From an uncultured Bacillales bacterium (lineage in GTDB: Bacteria > Bacillota_I > Bacilli_A > RFN20 > CAG-826): 64,000 nucleotides of DNA. The stretch's first letter is position 1. Every line of letters begins with the position of its first letter. The position numbers were made by a program, and so were the translations under genes. The stretch is from NCBI GenBank assembly GCA_947302535.1, contig CAMYVX010000004.1:221-64220 (forward strand). Direction: 5' to 3'. Shown here piece by piece: positions 5,690-64,000 of the stretch. Below the pieces are notes generated by a model that searched no databases, was not told where the DNA came from, and was given only the letters and a program-made list of their open reading frames with translations.

Positions 5690-7012
5690 ATGTTTGAAAC
5701 AATTGTGGCGCTTGCTACCCCGCCAATGAAGGGTGCCTTAGGAATAGTACGTCTTTCAGGAGATGACTGTTTTGAAGTTGTCAGTAAAGTCTTTTCTAAG
5801 GACATAAGGAAGATAGATAAAAGAACTCTTTTGGTTGGCACTATAAGAGCGCAAGGAGAAAAGATTGATGATGTTGTTTTAGCGGCTTATAAAGGACCTA
5901 AGAGTTTTACTGGAGAAGATTCTGTTGAAATCATTTGCCACGGCTCTATGCTTGTTGCTAATCAGATTATAGAAGCATTGTTACAGAGTGGAGCTCGTAT
6001 GGCCACAAACGGCGAATTCTCTTCTCGTGCTTTTTTACATCAGAAGATCGACTTGGTTCAAGCAGAATCAATTAACGATTTAATTAACTCCACCACTAAC
6101 GAATCAAAAAAGATTTCTATGATGTCCTTAGATGGTAAAGTTAGTTCGGTTGTAAGACCAATCAAAAAATCTTTAGCGGATCTTTTGTCTTTAATTGAGG
6201 TTAACATTGATTATCCTGAATATGAAGACATAGAAGTCGCAAATAAAAACAAAATTGTCAAAGATGTAGCCGATATTAATGGAAAAATCGTCAAAATGAT
6301 TGGCGATGCTGAAAAAGCAAGAATAATCAAAGAAGGGTTAAAAATCGCTATTATTGGTAAACCTAATGTTGGTAAATCTTCTTTACTAAACGCTCTTCTT
6401 GGACAGGATAAAGCCATCGTTACAGATATTGCGGGTACTACTCGTGATATTGTTGAGGGCGATTTCTTATTAAAAGGTATTGTTGTTCATCTTCTTGATA
6501 CTGCTGGAATACGTGAATCAAATAATGTTGTTGAATCTTTTGGTATTGAGAAGAGTAAGAAAGCCATTGAAGAAGCAGATTTAATTATTGTTGTTTTAGA
6601 TGGTTCTCGTGAATTTTCTAAAGAGGACCAAGACATCATTGATTTATGTGGAGAGAAAAAGACCATTATTGTAAATAATAAAGCAGATATTATTAAGAAA
6701 AAAAATGCACTAAATATATCCGCGTTACACAAAGATATAGAACCTCTATTGAATGAGATGTATAAAGCTATTGGTTTAGAAGAAGATTCTTTCTTTAACC
6801 CAGCATTAAACAATGCACGTCAAATTGGTTTGCTTAAACAAGCCAAGGAAGCATTAGATAAAGCCAAAGAAGATGCTTTAAATGATCTTCCTGTGGAATT
6901 AATTGCTGTGTCTTTAAATATCGCTTATTCTGCGATTTTAGAAATTCTTGGTGAATCCAATCAAGTTGATTTTTCTAAAGAAATATTCTCACGCTTCTGC
7001 GTTGGTAAATAA
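5690..7012 (+). CDS. mnmE: tRNA modification GTPase MnmE (TrmE)
   Basis: N-terminus MFETIVALATPPMKGALGIVRLSG is the MnmE signature. G-domain motifs GKPNVGKSS and DTAG are present, and the protein ends in C-terminal CVGK. The ORF track starts at a GTG at 5669 that lies inside the terminator hairpin; the ATG at 5690 is more plausible. Confidence 0.93.
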   Translation: MFETIVALATPPMKGALGIVRLSGDDCFEVVSKVFSKDIRKIDKRTLLVGTIRAQGEKIDDVVLAAYKGPKSFTGEDSVEIICHGSMLVANQIIEALLQSGARMATNGEFSSRAFLHQKIDLVQAESINDLINSTTNESKKISMMSLDGKVSSVVRPIKKSLADLLSLIEVNIDYPEYEDIEVANKNKIVKDVADINGKIVKMIGDAEKARIIKEGLKIAIIGKPNVGKSSLLNALLGQDKAIVTDIAGTTRDIVEGDFLLKGIVVHLLDTAGIRESNNVVESFGIEKSKKAIEEADLIIVVLDGSREFSKEDQDIIDLCGEKKTIIVNNKADIIKKKNALNISALHKDIEPLLNEMYKAIGLEEDSFFNPALNNARQIGLLKQAKEALDKAKEDALNDLPVELIAVSLNIAYSAILEILGESNQVDFSKEIFSRFCVGK

Positions 7013-7014
7013 TT

Positions 7015-7782
7015 ATGCTTTTTGATACTCACTGCCATTTAAATGACGAAAAGTTGCTCGACCGTGTTGATGAAGTGATTTTGGACGCTAATAAAGCCGG
7101 AGTAACTCATTTTCTAGTTGTTGGTTGGGATAAAGAAAGCTCTTTTAAAGCTGTAGAGATTACCGAACAACACGAAAACGTTTATGCGATTATTGGCTTT
7201 CATCCGGAAAACGTCTTCGATGTTAGTGAAGAAGACTTTAACGAAACATTAGAACTATATAAGCACCCTAAGGTTGTTGCTATTGGAGAAATAGGCCTTG
7301 ATTACCATTGGACGAAAGATCCTATTAAAAGAGAAATCCAAAAAGAATATTTTATTAGGCAAATACAATTTGCTAACCACGTAGGTATGCCTGTATCCAT
7401 TCATAATAGAGAAGCGTTCGAAGACTGTTTAAATATCTTAAAAGAATATAAACCTCTATACGGTGGAGTTATGCATTGTTATTCAGGTAGTGTTGAACTA
7501 TTAGAAGACGTTTTAAAACTTGGTTTATACATTGGTTTAGATGGACCGTTAACCTTCTTAAACGCAAAAACCCCAAAGGAAGTATGCGAAAAAGTTCCTT
7601 TAGATAGATTACTCTTAGAAACTGATTGTCCCTACTTAGCACCACACCCGTTAAGAGGCACTATTAACGAACCTAAGAACATAGGATTAATTTTAGATGA
7701 AGTGGCAAGATTGAAAAATCTATCGAAAAAGCATATCGCTGATATCACGAGCCGGAATGCTAAAAAATTGTTTCACGTGTAA
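7015..7782 (+). CDS. tatD: TatD family metal-dependent DNase/hydrolase
   Basis: 255 aa, N-terminal DTHCHL motif, TIM-barrel hydrolase signature. Confidence 0.88.
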   Translation: MLFDTHCHLNDEKLLDRVDEVILDANKAGVTHFLVVGWDKESSFKAVEITEQHENVYAIIGFHPENVFDVSEEDFNETLELYKHPKVVAIGEIGLDYHWTKDPIKREIQKEYFIRQIQFANHVGMPVSIHNREAFEDCLNILKEYKPLYGGVMHCYSGSVELLEDVLKLGLYIGLDGPLTFLNAKTPKEVCEKVPLDRLLLETDCPYLAPHPLRGTINEPKNIGLILDEVARLKNLSKKHIADITSRNAKKLFHV

Positions 7783-7785
7783 ATT

Positions 7786-8319
7786 ATGAAACCAAAATTA
7801 GATTGTGTTTTAGTGGTTGAAGGGACACAAGACGCTTCCCTAATCTCTTCTTTATACGATGTTTGTATAGTGACCACAAATGGATACGAATGTCCTAAAG
7901 CTGAAATTGACTTTTTAAATAGGGCCAGTAGACTCTATCCAATTGTTATTCTTACTGATAGTGATGAGGCTGGAGAGAGTATACGAGTTAAACTGTCATC
8001 TATTAATAACACACAGCATGTTAGAGTAGATCCAAGTAAGTGTGACAAAAGGAATAAACACGGTGTTGCTGAATGTGATATTTACGAAATTAAGCGCGTT
8101 TTATCGCAATTTTCACATCAAAAGACGCAAAATTTTAGTTCAAACATCGAATTAAATGATTTAGCAAATATCGGATTGGATAAAGCAAAAAGAGAATATG
8201 TAGCCACTAAATTGAGTTTAGGTAAATGTAATAGCAAAACATTCATTAAACGAGTCAATTTGCTTGGAATTACATTAGACAATATAAAGGATGTATTAAG
8301 GGAATATGATAATCGATAG
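7786..8319 (+). CDS. rnmV: Ribonuclease M5 (Toprim domain)
   Basis: Toprim motifs VVEGTQD and LTDSDEAG. Conserved neighbour of ksgA in Firmicutes. Confidence 0.85.
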   Translation: MKPKLDCVLVVEGTQDASLISSLYDVCIVTTNGYECPKAEIDFLNRASRLYPIVILTDSDEAGESIRVKLSSINNTQHVRVDPSKCDKRNKHGVAECDIYEIKRVLSQFSHQKTQNFSSNIELNDLANIGLDKAKREYVATKLSLGKCNSKTFIKRVNLLGITLDNIKDVLREYDNR

Positions 8320-50825: not shown

Positions 50826-50901
50826 GGGTCTGTAGCTCACCTGGGAGAGCGCATCGTTCGCAACGATGAGGCAGCCGGTTCGATCCCGGTCAGATCCACC
50901 A
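50826..50901 (+). tRNA. tRNA-Ala with anticodon CGC
   Basis: Manual fold of the 76-nt sequence GGGTCTG TA GCTC ACCTGGGA GAGC G CATCG TTCGCAA CGATG AGGCA GCCGG TTCGATC CCGGT CAGATCC A CCA. It has the G3:U70 wobble pair (alanine identity element), discriminator A73 and an encoded CCA. The anticodon loop is TTCGCAA, reading anticodon CGC. Confidence 0.85.
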
Positions 50902-51097
50902 GAAATACCCGCTACCAGCTTTGCTGGTAAACATAGATAAGAAGTCAATCTACGGGAAAGATTTCAAAACACAAGAAGGATGATAATCCATCCTTGGTAA
51001 GTATAGCCCCCATTTATGTAACTATACGAAAGCATTTGAGTCATAGAGATTATTCGCTAGCTTGTTGGGGCAAGCGGCTTGATGCGAAATCATCTTC

Positions 51098-51289
51098 CTA
51101 TTTGGAAGATTTTTTCTTTTCAAGAACGTCAATTAACTCCTCGTCTTCTTTTGATAAATGCCAATTGAGAAATGGCTTGGAGAAATACTTTTGGGGAATG
51201 TTTTCAATCCTAACGACGCAAAGATAAGCGGGGCTGTCATCTTTAGGGTTTGGATTACTATTCATCTGAATATATGTGTCGTCGGCCAA
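51098..51289 (-). CDS. Doubtful small ORF abutting repeat A1
   Basis: 63 aa from a TTG start that lies inside the repeat boundary. No recognisable domain. It may be a gene remnant or spurious. Confidence 0.15.
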   Translation of the reverse strand: MADDTYIQMNSNPNPKDDSPAYLCVVRIENIPQKYFSKPFLNWHLSKEDEELIDVLEKKKSSK

Positions 51290-51698
51290 ACTCGTTTATT
51301 CGGTTTTGCACAAAACGACTTATCCAACATAGATGAGGCCTCCGTGTGAGGTCTTTTCTTGTGTCTCAGACCAGGCTCGAACTCCCGACCTCTTGCGAAC
51401 GATGCGCTTTCCCAGCATGAGCTAGCCATATTCGAGTTCTAAGGAACGTTTATATAAATATAAAGCATTTACTTGCTTGCCTGATTTCTATGTCCCAGAT
51501 GGCTTGTTTTTCAAATGTCTCTCATGGTGTGACAAAAAGAGCTGTCTATATAACGTATAGTATTGATGTGAGCAATCGAAGTAGCCTCACGCCTCATTAT
51601 AAACTCCATCTCACATATTTTAAGTTCATTTTACCAAAGCGCATATCTAAAGCTGGCCTACTTGCTACTTCAGGGCTGGCTTTTTCTTTGCTTTAACA
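51277..51698 (+). repeat. Repeat A, copy 1 (about 420 bp)
   Basis: Near-identical to 53039..53462, and its first 92 bp also recur at 57905..57996. It contains the palindrome GTTTTGCACAAAAC, a CCTC-CGTGT-GAGG hairpin followed by TCTTTTCTT, and at 51368..51428 (reverse strand) a degenerate tRNA-Ala-like segment that shares the 15-mer GCGCATCGTTCGCAA with the real tRNA. The track ORF 51490..51696 (MSQMACF…) lies inside it and is probably non-coding. Confidence 0.85.
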
Positions 51699-52085
51699 TT
51701 GTTAACGATGCTTACACTAGGTATGCTATGTAGTTGTGGGGGATATGTTAAGAATTATTCTGCAACCATTTTGATTACTTCTTGTCAAGGTGATGAAGCA
51801 AGTATGAAATTTGATACATTTAATGGAACGTATAATTTCAAATTAAGAAGAGATAATATGGCTGAGTATACACTTGATTATGAAGCAAGTCTAGCTGAAG
51901 GTGAAATGAGTGTTTATATCGGAGTTGATGGTGAAAAAGAATTATTATTTGTAGTTAAGGGTGGAGAATCCTACGACGAAACGATTACACTTCATAATAA
52001 ATATGATAATGAAAAAACAATCTACATTATTCTTGAATCGACAGGTAAATGTGTAGATGGTGATTTTGAGTTTGAGTACAATTAA
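51699..52085 (+). CDS. Hypothetical small secreted or lipoprotein-like protein
   Basis: 128 aa with a short hydrophobic N-terminus containing Cys residues (MLTMLTLGMLCSCGG). The called start is TTG; an ATG lies at 51708. It begins exactly where repeat A1 ends. Confidence 0.45.
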   Translation: MLTMLTLGMLCSCGGYVKNYSATILITSCQGDEASMKFDTFNGTYNFKLRRDNMAEYTLDYEASLAEGEMSVYIGVDGEKELLFVVKGGESYDETITLHNKYDNEKTIYIILESTGKCVDGDFEFEYN

Positions 52086-52134
52086 TTTAAGTGAAACAAA
52101 CAAATAAATTAGAATTTGTAAAGGAGAAACAACG

Positions 52135-52917
52135 ATGAAAATTGACGTTAATGAATTGTTTGAAGAACTTGGAAGCCTTTCGCAAGTAGAAGCGATTGCT
52201 CTTGGTGGGTCAAGAGCGACTGGTAGAAATGATGAAAAATCAGATTACGATGTGTATGTGTACATAACAAGCAGTATTGATGAAAATGTGCGAAGAAATA
52301 TTCTGGAAAAATACTGCAGATATATGGAAATCGGGAATTCCTTTTGGGAACTTGAAGATGATGTTACCTTAAATGATGGAATTGATATGGACATCATTTA
52401 CAGAAATATGCAGGATTTTGAAGACATGGTTTCCTCTGTTGTAATAGACTGTGTGCCATGTAATGGCTATACCACTTGTATGTGGCATAATCTCATTACC
52501 GCTAAAATTGTAATAGATAAAAATGGAAAACTGAGCGCTCTACAGGAAAAATATCGGATTCCATATCCAAAGAAGCTAAAGGAGAAGATCATATCCAATA
52601 ATCTAAAGCTTCTTAGTGGTATGTTACCGTCATTTGATATGCAGATAAAAAAGGCAGAGAATAGAGGGGACCTTGTAAGCGTCAATCATAGGGTTGCTGA
52701 ATTCCTCGCAAGTTATTTCGATATTATTTTTGCACTGAATGAGATGACACACCCTGGGGAGAAGAGAATGCAAAGTATTTGTTCTGAGGAATGCAAGATT
52801 TTGCCTAATCGCTTTGACGAAAATCTGAACAGATTATTTGCAGGAATGTTCAGAGAGAGTATATCAGATGTAATAAATGATATGATAATTGAGATAAAAA
52901 CGATTACGAAGATGTAG
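52135..52917 (+). CDS. Pol-beta superfamily nucleotidyltransferase with a C-terminal helical domain (LnuB/ANT-like architecture)
   Basis: N-terminal motif LGGSRATGRNDEKSDYDVYVY (GS…DxD) and a downstream DMDIIY motif, 260 aa. This is the architecture of lincosamide and aminoglycoside nucleotidyltransferases. Confidence 0.6.
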   Translation: MKIDVNELFEELGSLSQVEAIALGGSRATGRNDEKSDYDVYVYITSSIDENVRRNILEKYCRYMEIGNSFWELEDDVTLNDGIDMDIIYRNMQDFEDMVSSVVIDCVPCNGYTTCMWHNLITAKIVIDKNGKLSALQEKYRIPYPKKLKEKIISNNLKLLSGMLPSFDMQIKKAENRGDLVSVNHRVAEFLASYFDIIFALNEMTHPGEKRMQSICSEECKILPNRFDENLNRLFAGMFRESISDVINDMIIEIKTITKM

Positions 52918-53038
52918 TCAAATTCCTATTTATCGATTAGATATTATTATTAAACGATTACAAGCAGGTGGTTTCATTATTAAACGATTATATTTAAATT
53001 GTATTAATATTGTCGTACCTTGCCACATAAGTAAATCA

Positions 53039-53462
53039 TGTCGTTGGTCAAACTCGTTTATTCGGTTTTACACAAAACGACTTATCCAACATAGATGAGG
53101 CCTCCGTGTGAGGTCTTTTCTTGTGTCTCAGACCAGGCTCGAACTCCCGACCTCTTGCGAACGATGCGCTTTCCCAGCATGAGCTAGCCATATTCGAGTT
53201 CTAAGGAACGTTTATATAAATATAAAGCATTTACTTGCTTGCCTGATTTCTATGTCCCAGATGGCTTGTTTTTCAAATGTCTCTCATGGTGTGACAAAAA
53301 GAGCTGTCTATATAACGTATAGTATTGATGTGAGCAATCGAAGTAGCCTCACGCCTCATTATAAACTCCATCTCACATATTTTAAGTTCATTTTACCAAA
53401 GCGCATATCTAAAGCTGGCCTACTTGCTACTTCAGGGCTGGCTTTTTTTCTTGCCTTTAACA
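53039..53462 (+). repeat. Repeat A, copy 2
   Basis: About 98% identical to 51277..51698, differing by a few substitutions and a small indel near the 3' end. The track ORF 53252..53473 is the same frame as in copy 1. Confidence 0.85.
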
Positions 53463-53506
53463 TAGTTAACTAAAATAGCATTCAGTACCCCGTGCGATCA
53501 TCAGTG

Positions 53507-53594
53507 TTTTCTTGTTCGCGAATGGATTGAATCACGACATAATACGGATAGTGACTTTTAGACAAAACTGAATGGATGAGTTTGTACAACTACA
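53507..53594 (+). repeat. Repeat B, copy 1 (about 88 bp)
   Basis: TTTTCTTGTTCGCGAATGGATTGAATCACGACATAATACGGATAGTGACTTTTAGACAAAACTGAATGGATGAGTTTGTACAACTACA. Related copies lie at 59027..59114, 63144..63231 and, partially, 63953..64000. Its 3' 49 bp is an imperfect inverted repeat of the 5' 49 bp of repeat A. Confidence 0.8.
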
Positions 53595-54063
53595 ATATGA
53601 TTTTGGATAATCTAACATTTTCTTAATATCATGTGTAATCATGTAACCATTTAATTTTGTTTTTGAATTCTCGCTTCTTGTTTCTACTAAAACGACGATA
53701 AATGGATGATGGCCATTTCTTCTATAAAAACGAAAATGATACTTGTCGTGGCCATTATACTTTCTGTATCTAGACATATAAAAAATCACCTTCCTATATA
53801 TCGTTCCTTAAGAAAGAGTTGTGATTGGGGGGAACGATATATTTAGGCAATTAAACAATATAGTGCAGCGATTGTTCCTAATGTTTGTACATATAGAGTA
53901 CTTTGGGAATAAAGCAATAGCAATAAAAACTTTGTATTTATTGAATGTTAGCAAAAATAAGCTTGTTACATAGTAACAATTAGCAGTATTGCGTCGTGAC
54001 TGCTTGCTTCCTCTTCTTCTTCTTATAATTTGACTATAAAAATATAAGGGAAGCCTATAAATC

Positions 54064-54810
54064 ATGCTGTTTTGTCTTTTCAAGCAAAACACCATGAAAA
54101 AAGTTGTTATGAAAACGCTATTAGAAAATATACTTTCAAATATCATCAATTTAGGAATTGTTTTTACAAACGAATTAGAATTTCAGTTTTATCTTGCTCA
54201 AGAATTGAAATCAAATTCAACTGTAAAAGATGTTCTATTTGAGGTTCCTTCTTTTTCAAAACCTTGGTCTATTGTTAGTAAAAATTTAAAATCAATATCA
54301 AAAAAGGATAAACAATATACAGATTTGATTGCTTGTTTAAAAAATGGAATGCATGTAGCAATTGAATTAAAATATAAAACACCTAACAAAGCACATATTT
54401 ACTTGACTTCTAATGGCCCTGTGCTAACAATGGCACAAGGCGCTTATTATTTAGGTGCTTATTCTTTTCTGAGAGATGTTGAAAGACTAGTTAATGTTAT
54501 CTCAAAGAAAAGATTTTATGTAAACAATATTACCATTGATGAAGCTTATGCTATTTTTTTAACGAACGATTCAAATTACAGGAATAATTCTTTCACTAAA
54601 GGAAGTGGCGTTTGGAAGAAATTTGCGATTAATGATGGTGCAACAATCCCAAATAAGATTTTAACGACCCCTAGTAGTTATAATAAATTACATTTACCAC
54701 AATTAAATCTTTCTGGTTTAAAAACGAAGGGGGTTTTTAATTGGACTCCAAAATCCACTATAACTAATAATTCTTCTGATTTTGCATATATAGTTTTGGA
54801 GGTTAAATAA
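54064..54810 (+). CDS. Hypothetical protein with a PD-(D/E)xK nuclease-like motif
   Basis: 248 aa with D…(hydrophobic)xELKYK arrangement (YTDLIACLKNGMHVAIELKYK). The true start may be MKKVVMK at 54094. Confidence 0.5.
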   Translation: MLFCLFKQNTMKKVVMKTLLENILSNIINLGIVFTNELEFQFYLAQELKSNSTVKDVLFEVPSFSKPWSIVSKNLKSISKKDKQYTDLIACLKNGMHVAIELKYKTPNKAHIYLTSNGPVLTMAQGAYYLGAYSFLRDVERLVNVISKKRFYVNNITIDEAYAIFLTNDSNYRNNSFTKGSGVWKKFAINDGATIPNKILTTPSSYNKLHLPQLNLSGLKTKGVFNWTPKSTITNNSSDFAYIVLEVK

Positions 54811-57540: not shown

Positions 57541-57904
57541 TTTACAAAACAATAATCGACCACTTATCAAAAGCAAAAGAGGTGGCATTATGCAAGAAAG
57601 AAAAATAAAATGATTAGCAATGGATTAAAGAATAAACCTCTATGATACCGGCAAGCAAAGTCAATTGTCCCGTTTTTGTATAATGATTTGAAAAGCGATG
57701 ATAAGTGACAAAAACTGCATAAATAATAGCATTTTCGCCGCAAAACCCTAATATTTTAAAATTTTATTGTAACTTATATATGGTGTAGAAGCCAGAATAA
57801 TACACTAGCTCAATTAAAAACAGGACATTGAGTTCTCCTGTCCCGAAAATATAAGAGGTAGCATGTTATTATCGTAGCGCTTCAGATCCACCATAAATAT
57901 GAAC

Positions 57905-57996
57905 TGTCGTCGGCCAAACTCGTTTATTCGGTTTTGCACAAAACGACTTATCCAACATAGATGAGGCCTCCGTGTGAGGTCTTTTCTTGTGTCTCA
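57905..57996 (+). repeat. Repeat A, copy 3 (5' 92 bp only)
   Basis: Identical to the first 92 bp of repeat A, then diverges into a GACCTC-CTCGT-GAGGTC hairpin followed by TTTTT (58005..58026) and a CATTGTTCGAAACAATG palindrome. A 12-nt copy of the tRNA-Ala 3' end (TCAGATCCACCA) lies at 57883..57894. Confidence 0.8.
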
Positions 57997-58065
57997 AACT
58001 CGCCGACCTCCTCGTGAGGTCTTTTTCATTGTTCGAAACAATGTATAATTACTATTGAAAGCAAA

Positions 58066-58938
58066 ATGATTAGATTTGTAAATTTTCAACATTGTTATTA
58101 TCAACAAGTTTGTGATTTTTTGATTGAAATTAACAAAGAGAATAATTATCACAACAATTGGAATTGGGCGCGATTTGAATGGATGTATGAGCACCCTTTA
58201 ACCCAAAAAGAACTACTACATTATATGGGTCTATGGTTTGATGATAATCATCTTGTGGGTGCGGCTTTAATCGATATGTTTTTTGGTGAAGCGTTCGTTG
58301 GTGTACTAAATAAATATCAAAGCTTATATCCAGAAGTATTAAAATACGCTTTTGATAATTTAAAAGATGATCAAGGCTTAGGCATATCTTTCCGCGATGA
58401 AAATATAGATGAAATTAATGAAGCGATTAAACAAGGCTTTAGTAAAGTTGAAGTAGAAGAAATAGATTGTGAAATTAATCTTGATAAGGAATTTGCTATT
58501 TCCTTGCCTGAAGGATTTAGTGTTGAAACGTTTGATGCTGAAAAAAACGCTAAAGAAATAGAATGGTTATTTTATCAGGGTTTTGATCACGGAAATGATA
58601 AAGAAGAATTTCTAAAACAACATAAAGAGCCAACAGGATCTAGACCTCATTTTAATCCATATCTGTGTATTGTTATTAGAAATAAACAAGGTGAACTGGT
58701 GGCTAGCGCCTCAACTTGGTATGACCCAAGAACTGATTACGCTTATGTAGAACCAGTTTGTGTCATTCCTGAATGTCGAAAGATGGGCTTAGGAAAGGCT
58801 GCGGTCTACACCGCGATTAATCACGCTAGAGAATTAGGTGCAAAAAGAGCAATAGTTAATTCTGGACAAGAATTCTACCAAAGGATAGGTTTTAGAAAGA
58901 AAAACCATTACTCCTTCTATTGGAAAAAAGAACTATAA
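58066..58938 (+). CDS. GNAT family N-acetyltransferase
   Basis: C-terminal GNAT motif A (VIPECRKMGLGKAAVYTAINHARELG), 290 aa. Confidence 0.75.
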   Translation: MIRFVNFQHCYYQQVCDFLIEINKENNYHNNWNWARFEWMYEHPLTQKELLHYMGLWFDDNHLVGAALIDMFFGEAFVGVLNKYQSLYPEVLKYAFDNLKDDQGLGISFRDENIDEINEAIKQGFSKVEVEEIDCEINLDKEFAISLPEGFSVETFDAEKNAKEIEWLFYQGFDHGNDKEEFLKQHKEPTGSRPHFNPYLCIVIRNKQGELVASASTWYDPRTDYAYVEPVCVIPECRKMGLGKAAVYTAINHARELGAKRAIVNSGQEFYQRIGFRKKNHYSFYWKKEL

Positions 58939-59026
58939 AGTCACCCTTAAACATTTCTACATTTACACTTTTTCAAAAATAACATAATCAAAGTAAAAGA
59001 ATTGGTCGAGTGAAATATCTCGGTTT

Positions 59027-59114
59027 TTTCTTGTTCGCGAATGAATTTAAACACGACATAATACGGATAGAGACTTTTGTGCAAAACAAGATGGATGAGT
59101 TTGTGTAACTACAG
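59027..59114 (+). repeat. Repeat B, copy 2
   Basis: TTTTCTTGTTCGCGAATGAATTTAAACACGACATAATACGGATAGAGACTTTTGTGCAAAACAAGATGGATGAGTTTGTGTAACTACA. It follows the GNAT gene. Confidence 0.8.
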
Positions 59115-63125: not shown

Positions 63126-63150
63126 AGCCACCTCACTGGTGGCTTTTCTT
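63126..63150 (+). terminator. Intrinsic terminator after the MMPL gene; its T-run is the start of repeat B3
   Basis: AGCCACC-TCACT-GGTGGCT hairpin followed by TTTTCTTG. Confidence 0.7.
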
Positions 63151-63231
63151 GTTCGCGAATGATTATAAACACGACATAATACGGATAGAGACTTTTGTGC
63201 AATTCTTGATAAGTGAGTCTGTGTAACTACA
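63144..63231 (+). repeat. Repeat B, copy 3
   Basis: TTTTCTTGTTCGCGAATGATTATAAACACGACATAATACGGATAGAGACTTTTGTGCAATTCTTGATAAGTGAGTCTGTGTAACTACA. Confidence 0.8.
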
Positions 63232-63325
63232 AGTTAGAAGGTCGCTAGTAATGGAGACTTTTTGTGTGGCACTTTTGTGATAGTTATTTGATATAATGAA
63301 ATCACTTATTCAAGGAGAAAAAGTT

Positions 63326-63613
63326 GTGAAAAAAGAATTACTAAAAGGTCTTAGCAATGAACAAATCGCTAAAATTGAGAAATGTAAAAACACAGACGAA
63401 ATATTAGCTTTAGCTAAATCTGAAGGCATTGAACTTACCGATGAACAATTAGAAGCTGTCAATGGCGGATGTGGTAAATCAAAAGAATGGTACGAAATTG
63501 ACAATATGCAATGTCCAGAATGTCTTAACAGCCACTGTATGGAAAAAGTCTCAGACGCATGGTATAGATGCAAGTACTGTAATAAAATTACAGTCAATAA
63601 AAATCTTCAATAA
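63326..63613 (+). CDS. Nif11-like leader, double-glycine, Cys-rich precursor peptide 1 (putative RiPP/bacteriocin precursor)
   Basis: Leader (V)KKELLKGLSNEQIAKIEKCKNTDEILALAKSEGIELTDEQLEAVNGG, then core CGKSKEWYEIDNMQCPECLNSHCMEKVSDAWYRCKYCNKITVNKNLQ with 6 Cys. Preferred start is GTG at 63326 with the RBS AAGGAG at 63313..63318; the track ORF starts at 63296. Confidence 0.7.
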   Translation: MKKELLKGLSNEQIAKIEKCKNTDEILALAKSEGIELTDEQLEAVNGGCGKSKEWYEIDNMQCPECLNSHCMEKVSDAWYRCKYCNKITVNKNLQ

Positions 63614-63630: not shown

Positions 63631-63921
63631 TTGAACATGAAACAAGAATTATTGAAAGGTTTAACCAAAGAACAAATTGAAAAAATTAAAGCGTGTAAGA
63701 ATCAAGAAGAATTATTGGCGCTAGCCAGAGCTGAAGGAATCGAACTTACTGACGAACAACTCACCGCTATTAATGGTGGTGGTGCTTGTAGTGTTATTTC
63801 AGATATTGGAGATTATATCAATCCATATGATTGTCCAAGATGTGGCAGTAATAATATTAAAGACAAAGGCACCTATTATATCTGCCAAAGCTGTGGCTAC
63901 AAAATTGAAAATTACGATTAA
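63631..63921 (+). CDS. Nif11-like leader, double-glycine, Cys-rich precursor peptide 2 (paralogue)
   Basis: Leader MNMKQELLKGLTKEQIEKIKACKNQEELLALARAEGIELTDEQLTAINGGG, then core ACSVISDIGDYINPYDCPRCGSNNIKDKGTYYICQSCGYKIENYD, which has a zinc-ribbon-like CPRC…CQSC pattern. Confidence 0.7.
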   Translation: MNMKQELLKGLTKEQIEKIKACKNQEELLALARAEGIELTDEQLTAINGGGACSVISDIGDYINPYDCPRCGSNNIKDKGTYYICQSCGYKIENYD

Positions 63922-63934
63922 ACAAACGAGTATA

Positions 63935-63957
63935 ACCGAGCTTAGCTCGGTTTTTTC
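63935..63957 (+). terminator. Intrinsic terminator after precursor peptide 2
   Basis: ACCGAGC-TTA-GCTCGGT hairpin followed by TTTTTTCTTG. Confidence 0.7.
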
Positions 63958-64000
63958 TTGTCTGAGCCATCGTGCGAACGATGAGCGAGTTAAAACCCCC
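63953..64000 (+). repeat. Repeat B-like element (variant), truncated by the window end
   Basis: TTTTTTCTTGTCTGAGCCATCGTGCGAACGATGAGCGAG… Same TTTTCTTGT entry point as the other B copies, then an anticodon-arm-like CATCG-TGCGAA-CGATG resembling the tRNA-Ala anticodon arm. Confidence 0.55.

Follow-up and report, generated by a model that had tools for sequence, protein, structure and literature searches.

The window analysed here is a 64,000-nt stretch of contig CAMYVX010000004.1 from an uncultured Bacillales bacterium. Its sole tRNA gene, tRNA-Ala(CGC), lies at 50826-50901 on the plus strand (ARAGORN; Rfam RF00005, 57.7 bits) and folds into a cloverleaf at -28 kcal/mol. Downstream of this gene we identified a 2,318-bp non-autonomous transposon copy bounded by an A end (repeat A) and an inverted D end. 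The A end contains, on the minus strand, a stretch resembling the body of the tRNA, referred to below as the pseudo-tRNA. An internal duplicate of the A end (A2, the terminal copy being A1) contains the same stretch. The features that bear on its identity are listed below, with target-site duplication abbreviated as TSD; L010 and L043 are metagenome contigs described further on.

50826..50901, plus strand: functional tRNA-Ala(CGC), attachment-site gene of the element family (ARAGORN, Rfam, fold)
50902..50913, plus strand: 12-nt trailer GAAATACCCGCT (12-locus comparison)
51272..51276, no strand: TSD ATATG on the A-end side (TSD comparison; single in the L043 empty site)
51277..53594, plus strand: non-autonomous transposon copy, 2,318 bp, 5'-TGT...ACA-3', running from the A end to the inverted D end (L010 copy, TSD, empty site)
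51277..51333, plus strand: A-end terminal module, starting TGTCGTCGG, with two direct ~24-bp sub-repeats CAAA-N-TTATCC recognised by eye (nhmmer, alignment of ~60 ends)
51335..51367, plus strand: intrinsic terminator hairpin GAGGCCTCCGTGTGAGGTC followed by TTTTCTTGTG (terminator scan)
51368..51428, minus strand: pseudo-tRNA-Ala(CGC), copy A1, with a 59-nt core at 51369-51427 (MAFFT collinearity, 15-mer, family comparison)
51429..51475, no strand: block adjoining the pseudo-tRNA and as conserved as it, at 95% pairwise identity (conservation comparison)
53039..53470, plus strand: repeat A2, internal duplicate of the A end, preceded by a decayed flank resembling a tRNA 3' end (self-comparison, L010 alignment)
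53130..53190, minus strand: pseudo-tRNA-Ala(CGC), copy A2, core 53131-53189 (15-mer, A1/A2 repeat)
53497..53594, minus strand: D-type end, inverted homologue of the A end, starting TGTAGTTGTAC (repeat comparison, end alignment)
53595..53599, no strand: TSD ATATG on the D-end side (TSD comparison, L043 empty site)

An inverted tRNA relic in the end of a transposon

A preliminary description of the window had proposed that repeat A carries a degenerate tRNA-Ala(CGC) body in inverted orientation. Our analysis bears this out: MAFFT aligned the minus-strand stretch collinearly with positions 8-72 of the tRNA, and the two share the exact 15-mer GCGCATCGTTCGCAA. This 15-mer occurs at three sites in the window, 50849 (plus), 51393 (minus) and 53155 (minus), and was not matched in 100 shuffles, none being expected by chance. 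The 59-nt string quoted in that description is the reverse complement of 51369-51427, the span given with it (51368-51428) being off by one base per side. Four or five bases of the 3' strand of the anticodon stem are absent, aligned as the 4-nt gap CGAT. According to the alignment, 3/7 pairs are left in the acceptor stem, 3/4 in the D stem and 3/5 in the T stem, the last with two central G-G mismatches. ARAGORN called no tRNA at either copy, and cmscan at E<=10 returned no RF00005 match in 51200-51600 or 52950-53700, a tRNA gene being expected to show four paired stems in a cloverleaf and to reach at least the 29-bit gathering threshold. Furthermore, the predicted fold was no better than that of shuffled sequence (z = +0.1 to +0.7). 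Given the negative ARAGORN and cmscan results and the broken stems, the pseudo-tRNA is not a complete tRNA gene, as the earlier claims of a missing anticodon-stem strand, an unpairable T-arm and lost function had it, and the tRNA search suggested there as a check has now been run with that outcome. The minus-strand stretch is thus a non-functional, inverted derivative of tRNA-Ala(CGC). Its reported recurrence in A2 also holds, with the core at 53131-53189 and A1 (51277-51706) and A2 (53039-53470) 98.4% identical over ~430 bp in the self-comparison of the window, and the second, anticodon-arm-like fragment noted near 63961..63990 is present as CATCGTGCGAACGATG at 63968-63983.

Repeat A, however, is only one end of a two-ended transposon, a point that goes beyond the preliminary description, and A1 and A2 are an internal duplication inside a single 2.3-kb copy. 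The same self-comparison revealed that A3 (57905-57996) matches the first 92 nt of A1 and that a second repeat family, with direct repeats at 53501, 59020 and 63138, is an inverted homologue of the first ~60 nt of A. We accordingly distinguished A ends, which begin TGTCGTCGGCCAAAC..., from D ends, which begin TGTAGTTACACAAAC.... When window positions 51272-53599 were compared with the rumen metagenome contig L010 (9980-12281), they aligned at 95% over 2,330 bp with the flanks unaligned. The L010 copy adjoins a different tRNA-Ala(CGC) in another organism and is flanked by AATAT.

In-silico excision of the window copy together with one ATATG pentamer restored an intact minus-strand open reading frame (ORF) of 118 aa. 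Of its 49 homologues, the majority are full-length (117-118 aa), and identity reaches 97% in the best. One homologue contig, L043 (652 bp, independent of the window contig), aligns to both window flanks with an overlap of exactly ATATG, and is a classical empty site. The assignment of the repeat to a mobile element in the preliminary description is therefore well founded, given the 5-bp duplication, the empty site on an independent contig and the 95%-identical copy elsewhere. The ORF split by the transposon occupies 51098-51276 and 53595-53789 on the minus strand; it has no Pfam match, and its homologues lie in varied contexts.

Further copies have the same structure. A perfect TSD, CGAAA, occurs three times around two tandem elements right behind the tRNA in L023, and a perfect GTAGC surrounds a 563-bp element with one precursor-peptide gene at contig positions 68757-69319. 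Contig positions beyond 64000 refer to the matching contig JAXFZD010000018.1 of a metagenome-assembled genome (MAG) of a Bacilli bacterium, of which the window is positions 1-64000. The 18 kb of this contig past the window hold six more end copies, and a profile built from the six window copies found no match in 1-50000, the core chromosome starting near dnaA. Where elements abut, their termini lie 5 nt apart in 12 of the 13 junctions read (4 or 5 in the remaining one), and tandem copies have a single duplicated pentamer in common. The ends are long, imperfect and inverted (~60-100 bp), with TGT termini in ~60 aligned ends and, by eye, two direct ~24-bp sub-repeats per end. The family is thus gene-poor and two-ended, with 5'-TGT...ACA-3' termini and 5-bp target duplications.

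Homing behind tRNA-Ala(CGC)

We compared twelve tRNA-Ala(CGC) loci from MAGs and metagenomes. The tRNAs differ in sequence, and their acceptor, anticodon and T stems show compensatory changes. In 11 of the 12 loci an A end begins 12-14 nt past the CCA, always with one polarity (L006 also allows a reading of 16 nt). The window itself makes up the twelfth locus and has the same 12-nt trailer; at the point where the A end starts in other genomes, it holds only a decayed remnant, including AACATAGATAAG (by eye). The family therefore inserts preferentially 12-14 nt downstream of tRNA-Ala(CGC) with the A end facing the tRNA, and repeated insertion at this place has produced head-to-tail arrays of small cassettes. 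The window copy at 51277-53594 jumped instead into the 118-aa ORF, ~370 bp further on.

The canonical order (tRNA, 12-14 nt, A end, inverted pseudo-tRNA) is seen in L010, L012, L018, L020, L022 and L031, with L005 and L023 showing a variant of it. In this arrangement, the real and the pseudo-tRNA converge on the transposon terminus. Across all copies, the cargo includes precursors of ribosomally synthesised and post-translationally modified peptides (RiPPs), GNATs, a ParE/Phd pair, a KilA-N protein, RhuM, AAA_14/DUF4143 and one TnpB.

Within the A end, the pseudo-tRNA sits 91 nt inside the terminus, right after the intrinsic terminator, on the opposite strand and with its 3' end outward. The terminator hairpin is kept among copies while its loop and stem vary, and it faces read-through from the tRNA side. 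The tRNA-like module recurs at 94-99% identity in at least ten further contigs, and no fewer than 12 copies at this level of identity agree in its position and orientation. The 15-mer itself is not invariant, however, some copies in other contigs reading GCGTATCG, GCGCCTCG or GCGCTTCG. Among the ~30 A ends with enough sequence, 9-12 carry the full pseudo-tRNA at 94-99% identity; ~7 have another or shortened form at the same place, and ~12 have no trace of one (~19 without the full module). The variant forms include the A3 deletion, in which the terminator is followed only by the shortened remnant TCTCA-AACTCGCCGACCTC (12 nt deleted), a type with a different 5' part in L005 and L026, and the remnant at 63961-63990, which keeps both anticodon-stem strands (CATCG TTCGCA CGATG, minus strand). 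D ends have TTCGCGAAC-AAGAAAA on their inner side, at the place equivalent to the pseudo-tRNA, and this may tentatively be regarded as a still shorter relic. One element without a pseudo-tRNA has a perfect TSD, indicating that the pseudo-tRNA is not needed in cis. The module is thus optional, and ends that lack it appear mobile.

The preliminary description had also suggested a common origin of the element family and the tRNA. The landing site ties the family to this gene, and so do the T-arm and the polymorphisms of the pseudo-tRNA, which match alleles of the clade. The T-arm, GGGAGTTCGAGCCT, is that of L022-type tRNA-Ala(CGC) alleles, and in the 5' half the variable positions coincide with those of the functional tRNAs. 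In L023, the pseudo-tRNA is identical at 30/30 positions to the L006/L020-type tRNA and not to its neighbouring tRNA; in L018, the D-loop is common to the pseudo-tRNA and its neighbour, and the L012 pseudo-tRNA has the GCGCCTCG allele. This pattern suggests patch-wise gene conversion between a resident tRNA and a nearby inverted copy, followed by movement of the element. Such conversion would account for the exact 15-mer in the window.

L005 holds two inverted pseudo-tRNAs, at 570-645 and 2670-2745. In both, a non-tRNA 5' part that they have in common, GGTCGCTGCYGGAGAGACAAG, gives way at the anticodon loop to a 3' half that differs between the two; in one of them this is the 3' half of the window-type tRNA, along with that half's own terminator. 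A small ORF (~109 aa, GC content roughly 50%) follows each of the two. This arrangement suggests that exchange took place at the anticodon loop.

Origin and role of the pseudo-tRNA

We consider it probable (roughly 0.7) that the pseudo-tRNA is an attachment-site-derived passenger, without RNA function, in the target-proximal end of a homing, Tn7-like transposon mobilised in trans. The elements would be moved by Tn7-like machinery consisting of a TnsB-type DDE transposase together with a target selector for the tRNA gene. The pseudo-tRNA would have been captured from the attachment site, spread by transposition and by internal duplication of the A1/A2 kind, and been homogenised patch-wise with resident tRNAs by gene conversion, and would now be mainly carried along without acting as RNA.

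Two hallmarks of Tn7 are found in these elements. The first is the 5-bp target duplication (ATATG, AATAT, CGAAA three times and GTAGC, with a single ATATG in the empty site). The second is site- and orientation-specific insertion at a fixed distance downstream of a conserved gene, seen in 11 of 12 loci. Like tRNA-homing Tn7-like transposons, the elements combine 5-bp duplications and TGT...ACA termini with long asymmetric ends that appear to contain internal direct repeats, and they lie at a fixed short distance downstream of a tRNA, in one orientation, with accessory or defence-type cargo. Tn7 and its relatives have 5-bp TSDs, orientation control and arrays of TnsB sites in their ends (PMC11406308). 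Cyanobacterial elements with a TnsA-TnsB fusion are tRNA-homing Tn7-like transposons (bioRxiv 10.1101/2021.02.06.429022), and a type I-D CRISPR-associated transposon (CAST) shows TnsD-dependent homing 30-33 nt downstream of tRNA-Leu (PMC10293859), a larger distance from the tRNA end than the 12-14 nt seen here. Unlike the Tn7-like homing elements named, those described here form tandem arrays at one site, carry a near-full-length inverted pseudo-tRNA inside the tRNA-proximal end and reside in a rumen or gut Erysipelotrichaceae-like lineage of Bacilli. A nearly complete copy of the target tRNA, inverted and placed inside the target-proximal end, is not known from described Tn7 relatives.

Several observations weigh against our preferred reading. 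Pfam and NCBIfam scans were run on most of the larger ORFs in the window, in the 18 kb of contig past it and in the related loci, and they revealed no gene for a transposase, TnsC, TniQ, an integrase, a reverse transcriptase or a Cas protein. Encoded TnsB (DDE transposase), TnsC (AAA+) and TniQ/TnsD, a further Tn7 hallmark, are thus absent from the scanned ORFs, and the copies, unlike tRNA-homing Tn7-like transposons, are non-autonomous and often single-gene. Searches for an autonomous element in phage and plasmid collections gave tRNA-like matches only or nothing; viral contigs had no match to the A or D end, and look-ups of cargo proteins found contexts but no transposase beside A or D ends. 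A description of this transposon family was likewise not found in the literature. Since no transposase was found, the term Tn7-like refers to cis features only, and machinery of the IS21, Mu or Tn5053 type would fit most of these. The tandem elements behind the tRNA (L023) and at contig positions 68757-69319 argue against classical Tn7-type target immunity, under which an attachment site receives a single insertion. Many neighbouring end pairs lack a matching TSD, probably because recombination among similar ends has scrambled the arrays. Moreover, no simple, nested or tandem insertion scheme was found that would yield an inverted internal pseudo-tRNA. Finally, conservation among six copies of the unit peaks in the pseudo-tRNA together with the adjoining 47 nt (95-100% pairwise, compared with 78-87% in the interior and 83% at the terminus). 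This argues for some constraint and speaks against a pure passenger; mosaic recombination in the remaining segments could also account for the difference.

This conservation could instead mean that the pseudo-tRNA acts as a working module in targeting or regulation. It could be a DNA mimic of the attachment site to which the selector binds, serving end-target coupling, immunity or autoregulation, or else a guide-like RNA pairing with the tRNA gene in the manner of the guides of CASTs. Beyond being the most conserved block, the pseudo-tRNA is present in full or variant form in all examinable tRNA-adjacent elements but one (L011), and its 5' half tracks the tRNA alleles. The shared segment of 31-32 nt (tRNA nt 8-38) ends ~51 bp before the insertion point, a distance that resembles type I-F CAST spacing, and a minus-strand promoter-like site lies ~170 nt upstream, at 51623-51596. 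A precedent exists in V-K CASTs, which have 17-bp tRNA-matching units made of a truncated repeat and spacer (bioRxiv 10.1101/2021.02.06.429022). As in those att-targeting (attachment-site-targeting) units, the element here carries sequence matching the tRNA gene beside which it is inserted. However, the V-K unit is 17 bp long, usually matches perfectly, adjoins a partial CRISPR repeat and works with Cas12k and a GTN protospacer-adjacent motif, whereas here we see a ~60-nt tRNA relic with imperfect matches, no adjoining CRISPR-like repeat, no flanking motif common to the variants and no Cas gene in the scanned ORFs. There is also no RNA structure signal, ends free of the pseudo-tRNA appear mobile, the pseudo-tRNA beside the L010 tRNA mismatches that tRNA at no fewer than 4 of 31 positions, and the module has decayed in several lineages. 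On balance, we regard a working module as unlikely. More doubtful still is the specific proposal that the pseudo-tRNA is the element's own homing determinant, that is, a portable attachment-site copy, acting as selector-bound DNA or as a guide-like transcript of tRNA nt 8-38, that directs insertion ~51 bp further on. If this were true, the pseudo-tRNA would amount to a counterpart of CAST att-targeting guides that works without CRISPR, is present even in gene-less mini-elements and is kept matched to the host tRNA by gene conversion.

It is very improbable that the pseudo-tRNA is an attL/attR-type scar of tyrosine-integrase islands in tRNA-Ala(CGC). The island does begin at the tRNA, the L005 pseudo-tRNAs with their swapped 3' halves suggest exchange at the anticodon loop, and a direct 12-nt fragment of the tRNA 3' end lies at 57882-57893. 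The situation thus recalls integrative elements that target tRNA genes (phages, integrative and conjugative elements, and genomic islands whose attP copies the 3' part of the tRNA), which also leave an island at a tRNA gene with scattered tRNA fragments. However, in those elements the fragments are direct 3'-end repeats at the island borders, made by a tyrosine integrase, and only the fragment at 57882-57893 fits this pattern. The copy here is inverted and internal, rich in the 5' half rather than keeping the 3' end, and lies inside a transposon flanked by variable 5-bp duplications, which a fixed-core recombinase would not be expected to make; no integrase gene was found in the scanned ORFs.

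Two further explanations are likewise very improbable. One is an invertible switch with the tRNA and pseudo-tRNA as arms, which would flip a ~190-bp segment containing the element end and terminator or swap tRNA 3' halves. In the canonical arrangement, the two do form convergent inverted repeats (31-32 nt at ~90% identity, ~190 bp apart), and 3'-half types are exchanged between tRNA and pseudo-tRNA when the window is set beside L005; yet no hybrid of a tRNA 5' end and a pseudo-tRNA 3' half was seen in the 12 loci, flipping would destroy the tRNA, and no invertase gene was found. The other is a plain tRNA pseudogene made by local segmental duplication, for which the A1/A2 duplication speaks but not the module's fixed place in a TSD-flanked transposon end in many organisms, or a tRNA-primed cDNA chimera, where the junction ...CACAA followed by GAAAAGACC resembles a tRNA 3' end fused to the complementary sequence of a terminated transcript but equally a natural tRNA trailer (CCAAGAAAA), and no reverse transcriptase was found in the scanned ORFs.

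Several other identities were considered for the repeat and rejected. A riboswitch, leader or small RNA was discarded, as there was no Rfam match, the folding energies were no better than those of shuffles and the internal hairpin GTTTTG..CAAAAC is not kept in D-type copies. A resemblance of GTTTTG...CTATCCGT to CRISPR or tracrRNA sequence was set aside, as nothing supported it. Membership in the CAST att-targeting guide class was dismissed because the pseudo-tRNA variants have no repeat motif in common and the scanned ORFs contain no Cas domains. IS200/IS605 elements have no inverted ends and no target duplication, and their guide lies immediately outside the right end; an IS200/IS605-TnpB end or omega RNA was therefore ruled out by the inverted-homologue ends and 5-bp duplications. 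A site-specific recombinase core with two inverted arms and a 5-nt spacer was also rejected, given that the pentamers vary from one insertion to another and that comparison with the empty site reveals a genuine duplication.

The system belongs with site-specific tRNA-homing transposons and their non-autonomous derivatives, and its unusual part is the near-complete inverted copy of the target tRNA in the end. Like miniature inverted-repeat transposable elements and other non-autonomous derivatives, the elements are short, lack a transposase and would be mobilised in trans. Their single-gene cassettes stacked at one site recall integron cassette arrays, but there is no attC or attI and the 5-bp duplications vary. 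A tRNA-derived module inside a mobile element is also known from eukaryotic tRNA-derived short interspersed nuclear elements (SINEs); unlike SINEs, the element here is not a retroelement and its tRNA module is, as far as visible, neither a promoter nor a primer site.

The findings define a mobile-element system of uncultured rumen and gut Bacilli (Erysipelotrichaceae-like MAGs), in which small non-autonomous transposons home behind tRNA-Ala(CGC). Homing and stacking help to explain the build-up of a gene-cassette island beside this tRNA, with arrays of single-gene cassettes encoding RiPP precursors, acetyltransferases, toxin-antitoxins and a nucleotidyltransferase of very wide spread. The outcome is integron-like, reached through apparent Tn7-type chemistry, and the pseudo-tRNA would be either a fossil of end evolution or a clue to how targeting information is carried.

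The surrounding gene-cassette island

Further features of the island in the window are as follows.

52104..52935, plus strand: nested 832-bp nucleotidyltransferase cassette, NTP_transf_2 and DUF4037 (near-identical copies in seven contexts)
57882..57893, plus strand: direct-orientation tRNA 3'-end fragment TCAGATCCACCA, 11 nt before the next A end, A3 (sequence match)
57905..59113, plus strand: second element, A3 (A end) to D3b (D end), carrying a GNAT cargo gene and without a matching TSD (repeat and domain scans)
63134..63231, minus strand: solo D-type end (D3c), upstream of RiPP precursor genes (repeat comparison, end alignment)
63936..63990, plus strand: terminator hairpin and TTTTTTCTTG, then the third pseudo-tRNA remnant (repeat comparison)

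The stretch 57883-57996, which spans the tRNA fragment and the start of A3, aligns to the junction of tRNA end and A end in L010. The window starts near the replication origin (dnaA, yidC and mnmE, 1194-2564 onward). The beginning of the tRNA-Ala(CGC) island lies ~50 kb away from dnaA and downstream of the genes uvrB, yolD/impB and rmuC. The source contig ends inside a D-type end (contig 82357-82461, equal to L002 2357-2461), and several metagenome contigs begin or end inside A or D ends. These repeats evidently break short-read assemblies, and the island is likely larger than seen.

The nested cassette at 52104-52935 encodes a 260-aa nucleotidyltransferase with a weak MntA-like match. Copies at 99.5-100% identity occur in seven contexts unrelated to one another, among them a prophage with serine recombinases and sites beside argS and rpmF/rpsU, and the exact protein is listed in 1,448 collection blocks. 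The cassette boundaries are ATAAAT...ATTTATCG, and repeats of the TAGGGGTATGCAAA type follow several copies. It has the look of a mobile gene in its own right, and a very successful one.

At least seven paralogous RiPP-type precursor genes were identified, at 63296-63613 and 63631-63921 of the window and on the minus strand of L001 (3165-5178). All of them combine a Nif11-like leader with a GG cleavage motif and a zinc-ribbon-like core rich in Cys, and several form their own transposon cassette. The upstream motif GTGGCAC-N5-TGTGACA/TGTGGCA bears a loose likeness to a sigma-54 -24/-12 element. Related loci include a radical-SAM/SPASM enzyme and C39-peptidase ABC exporters (L004).

In L016, a tnpB gene at 6689-8107 (OrfB_IS605 with a Cas12f1-like TNB domain) lies 170-260 nt upstream of a D-type end, which is preceded by the usual terminator with TTTTCTTG and TTCGCGAA; this TnpB looks like cargo. 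Within the window island, a 248-aa ORF at 54064-54810 lies upstream of a 908-aa surface protein with InlB B-repeats and DUF6273. It matches no family and contains a D...E-x-K-like motif (VAIELKYK) reminiscent of PD-(D/E)xK nucleases.

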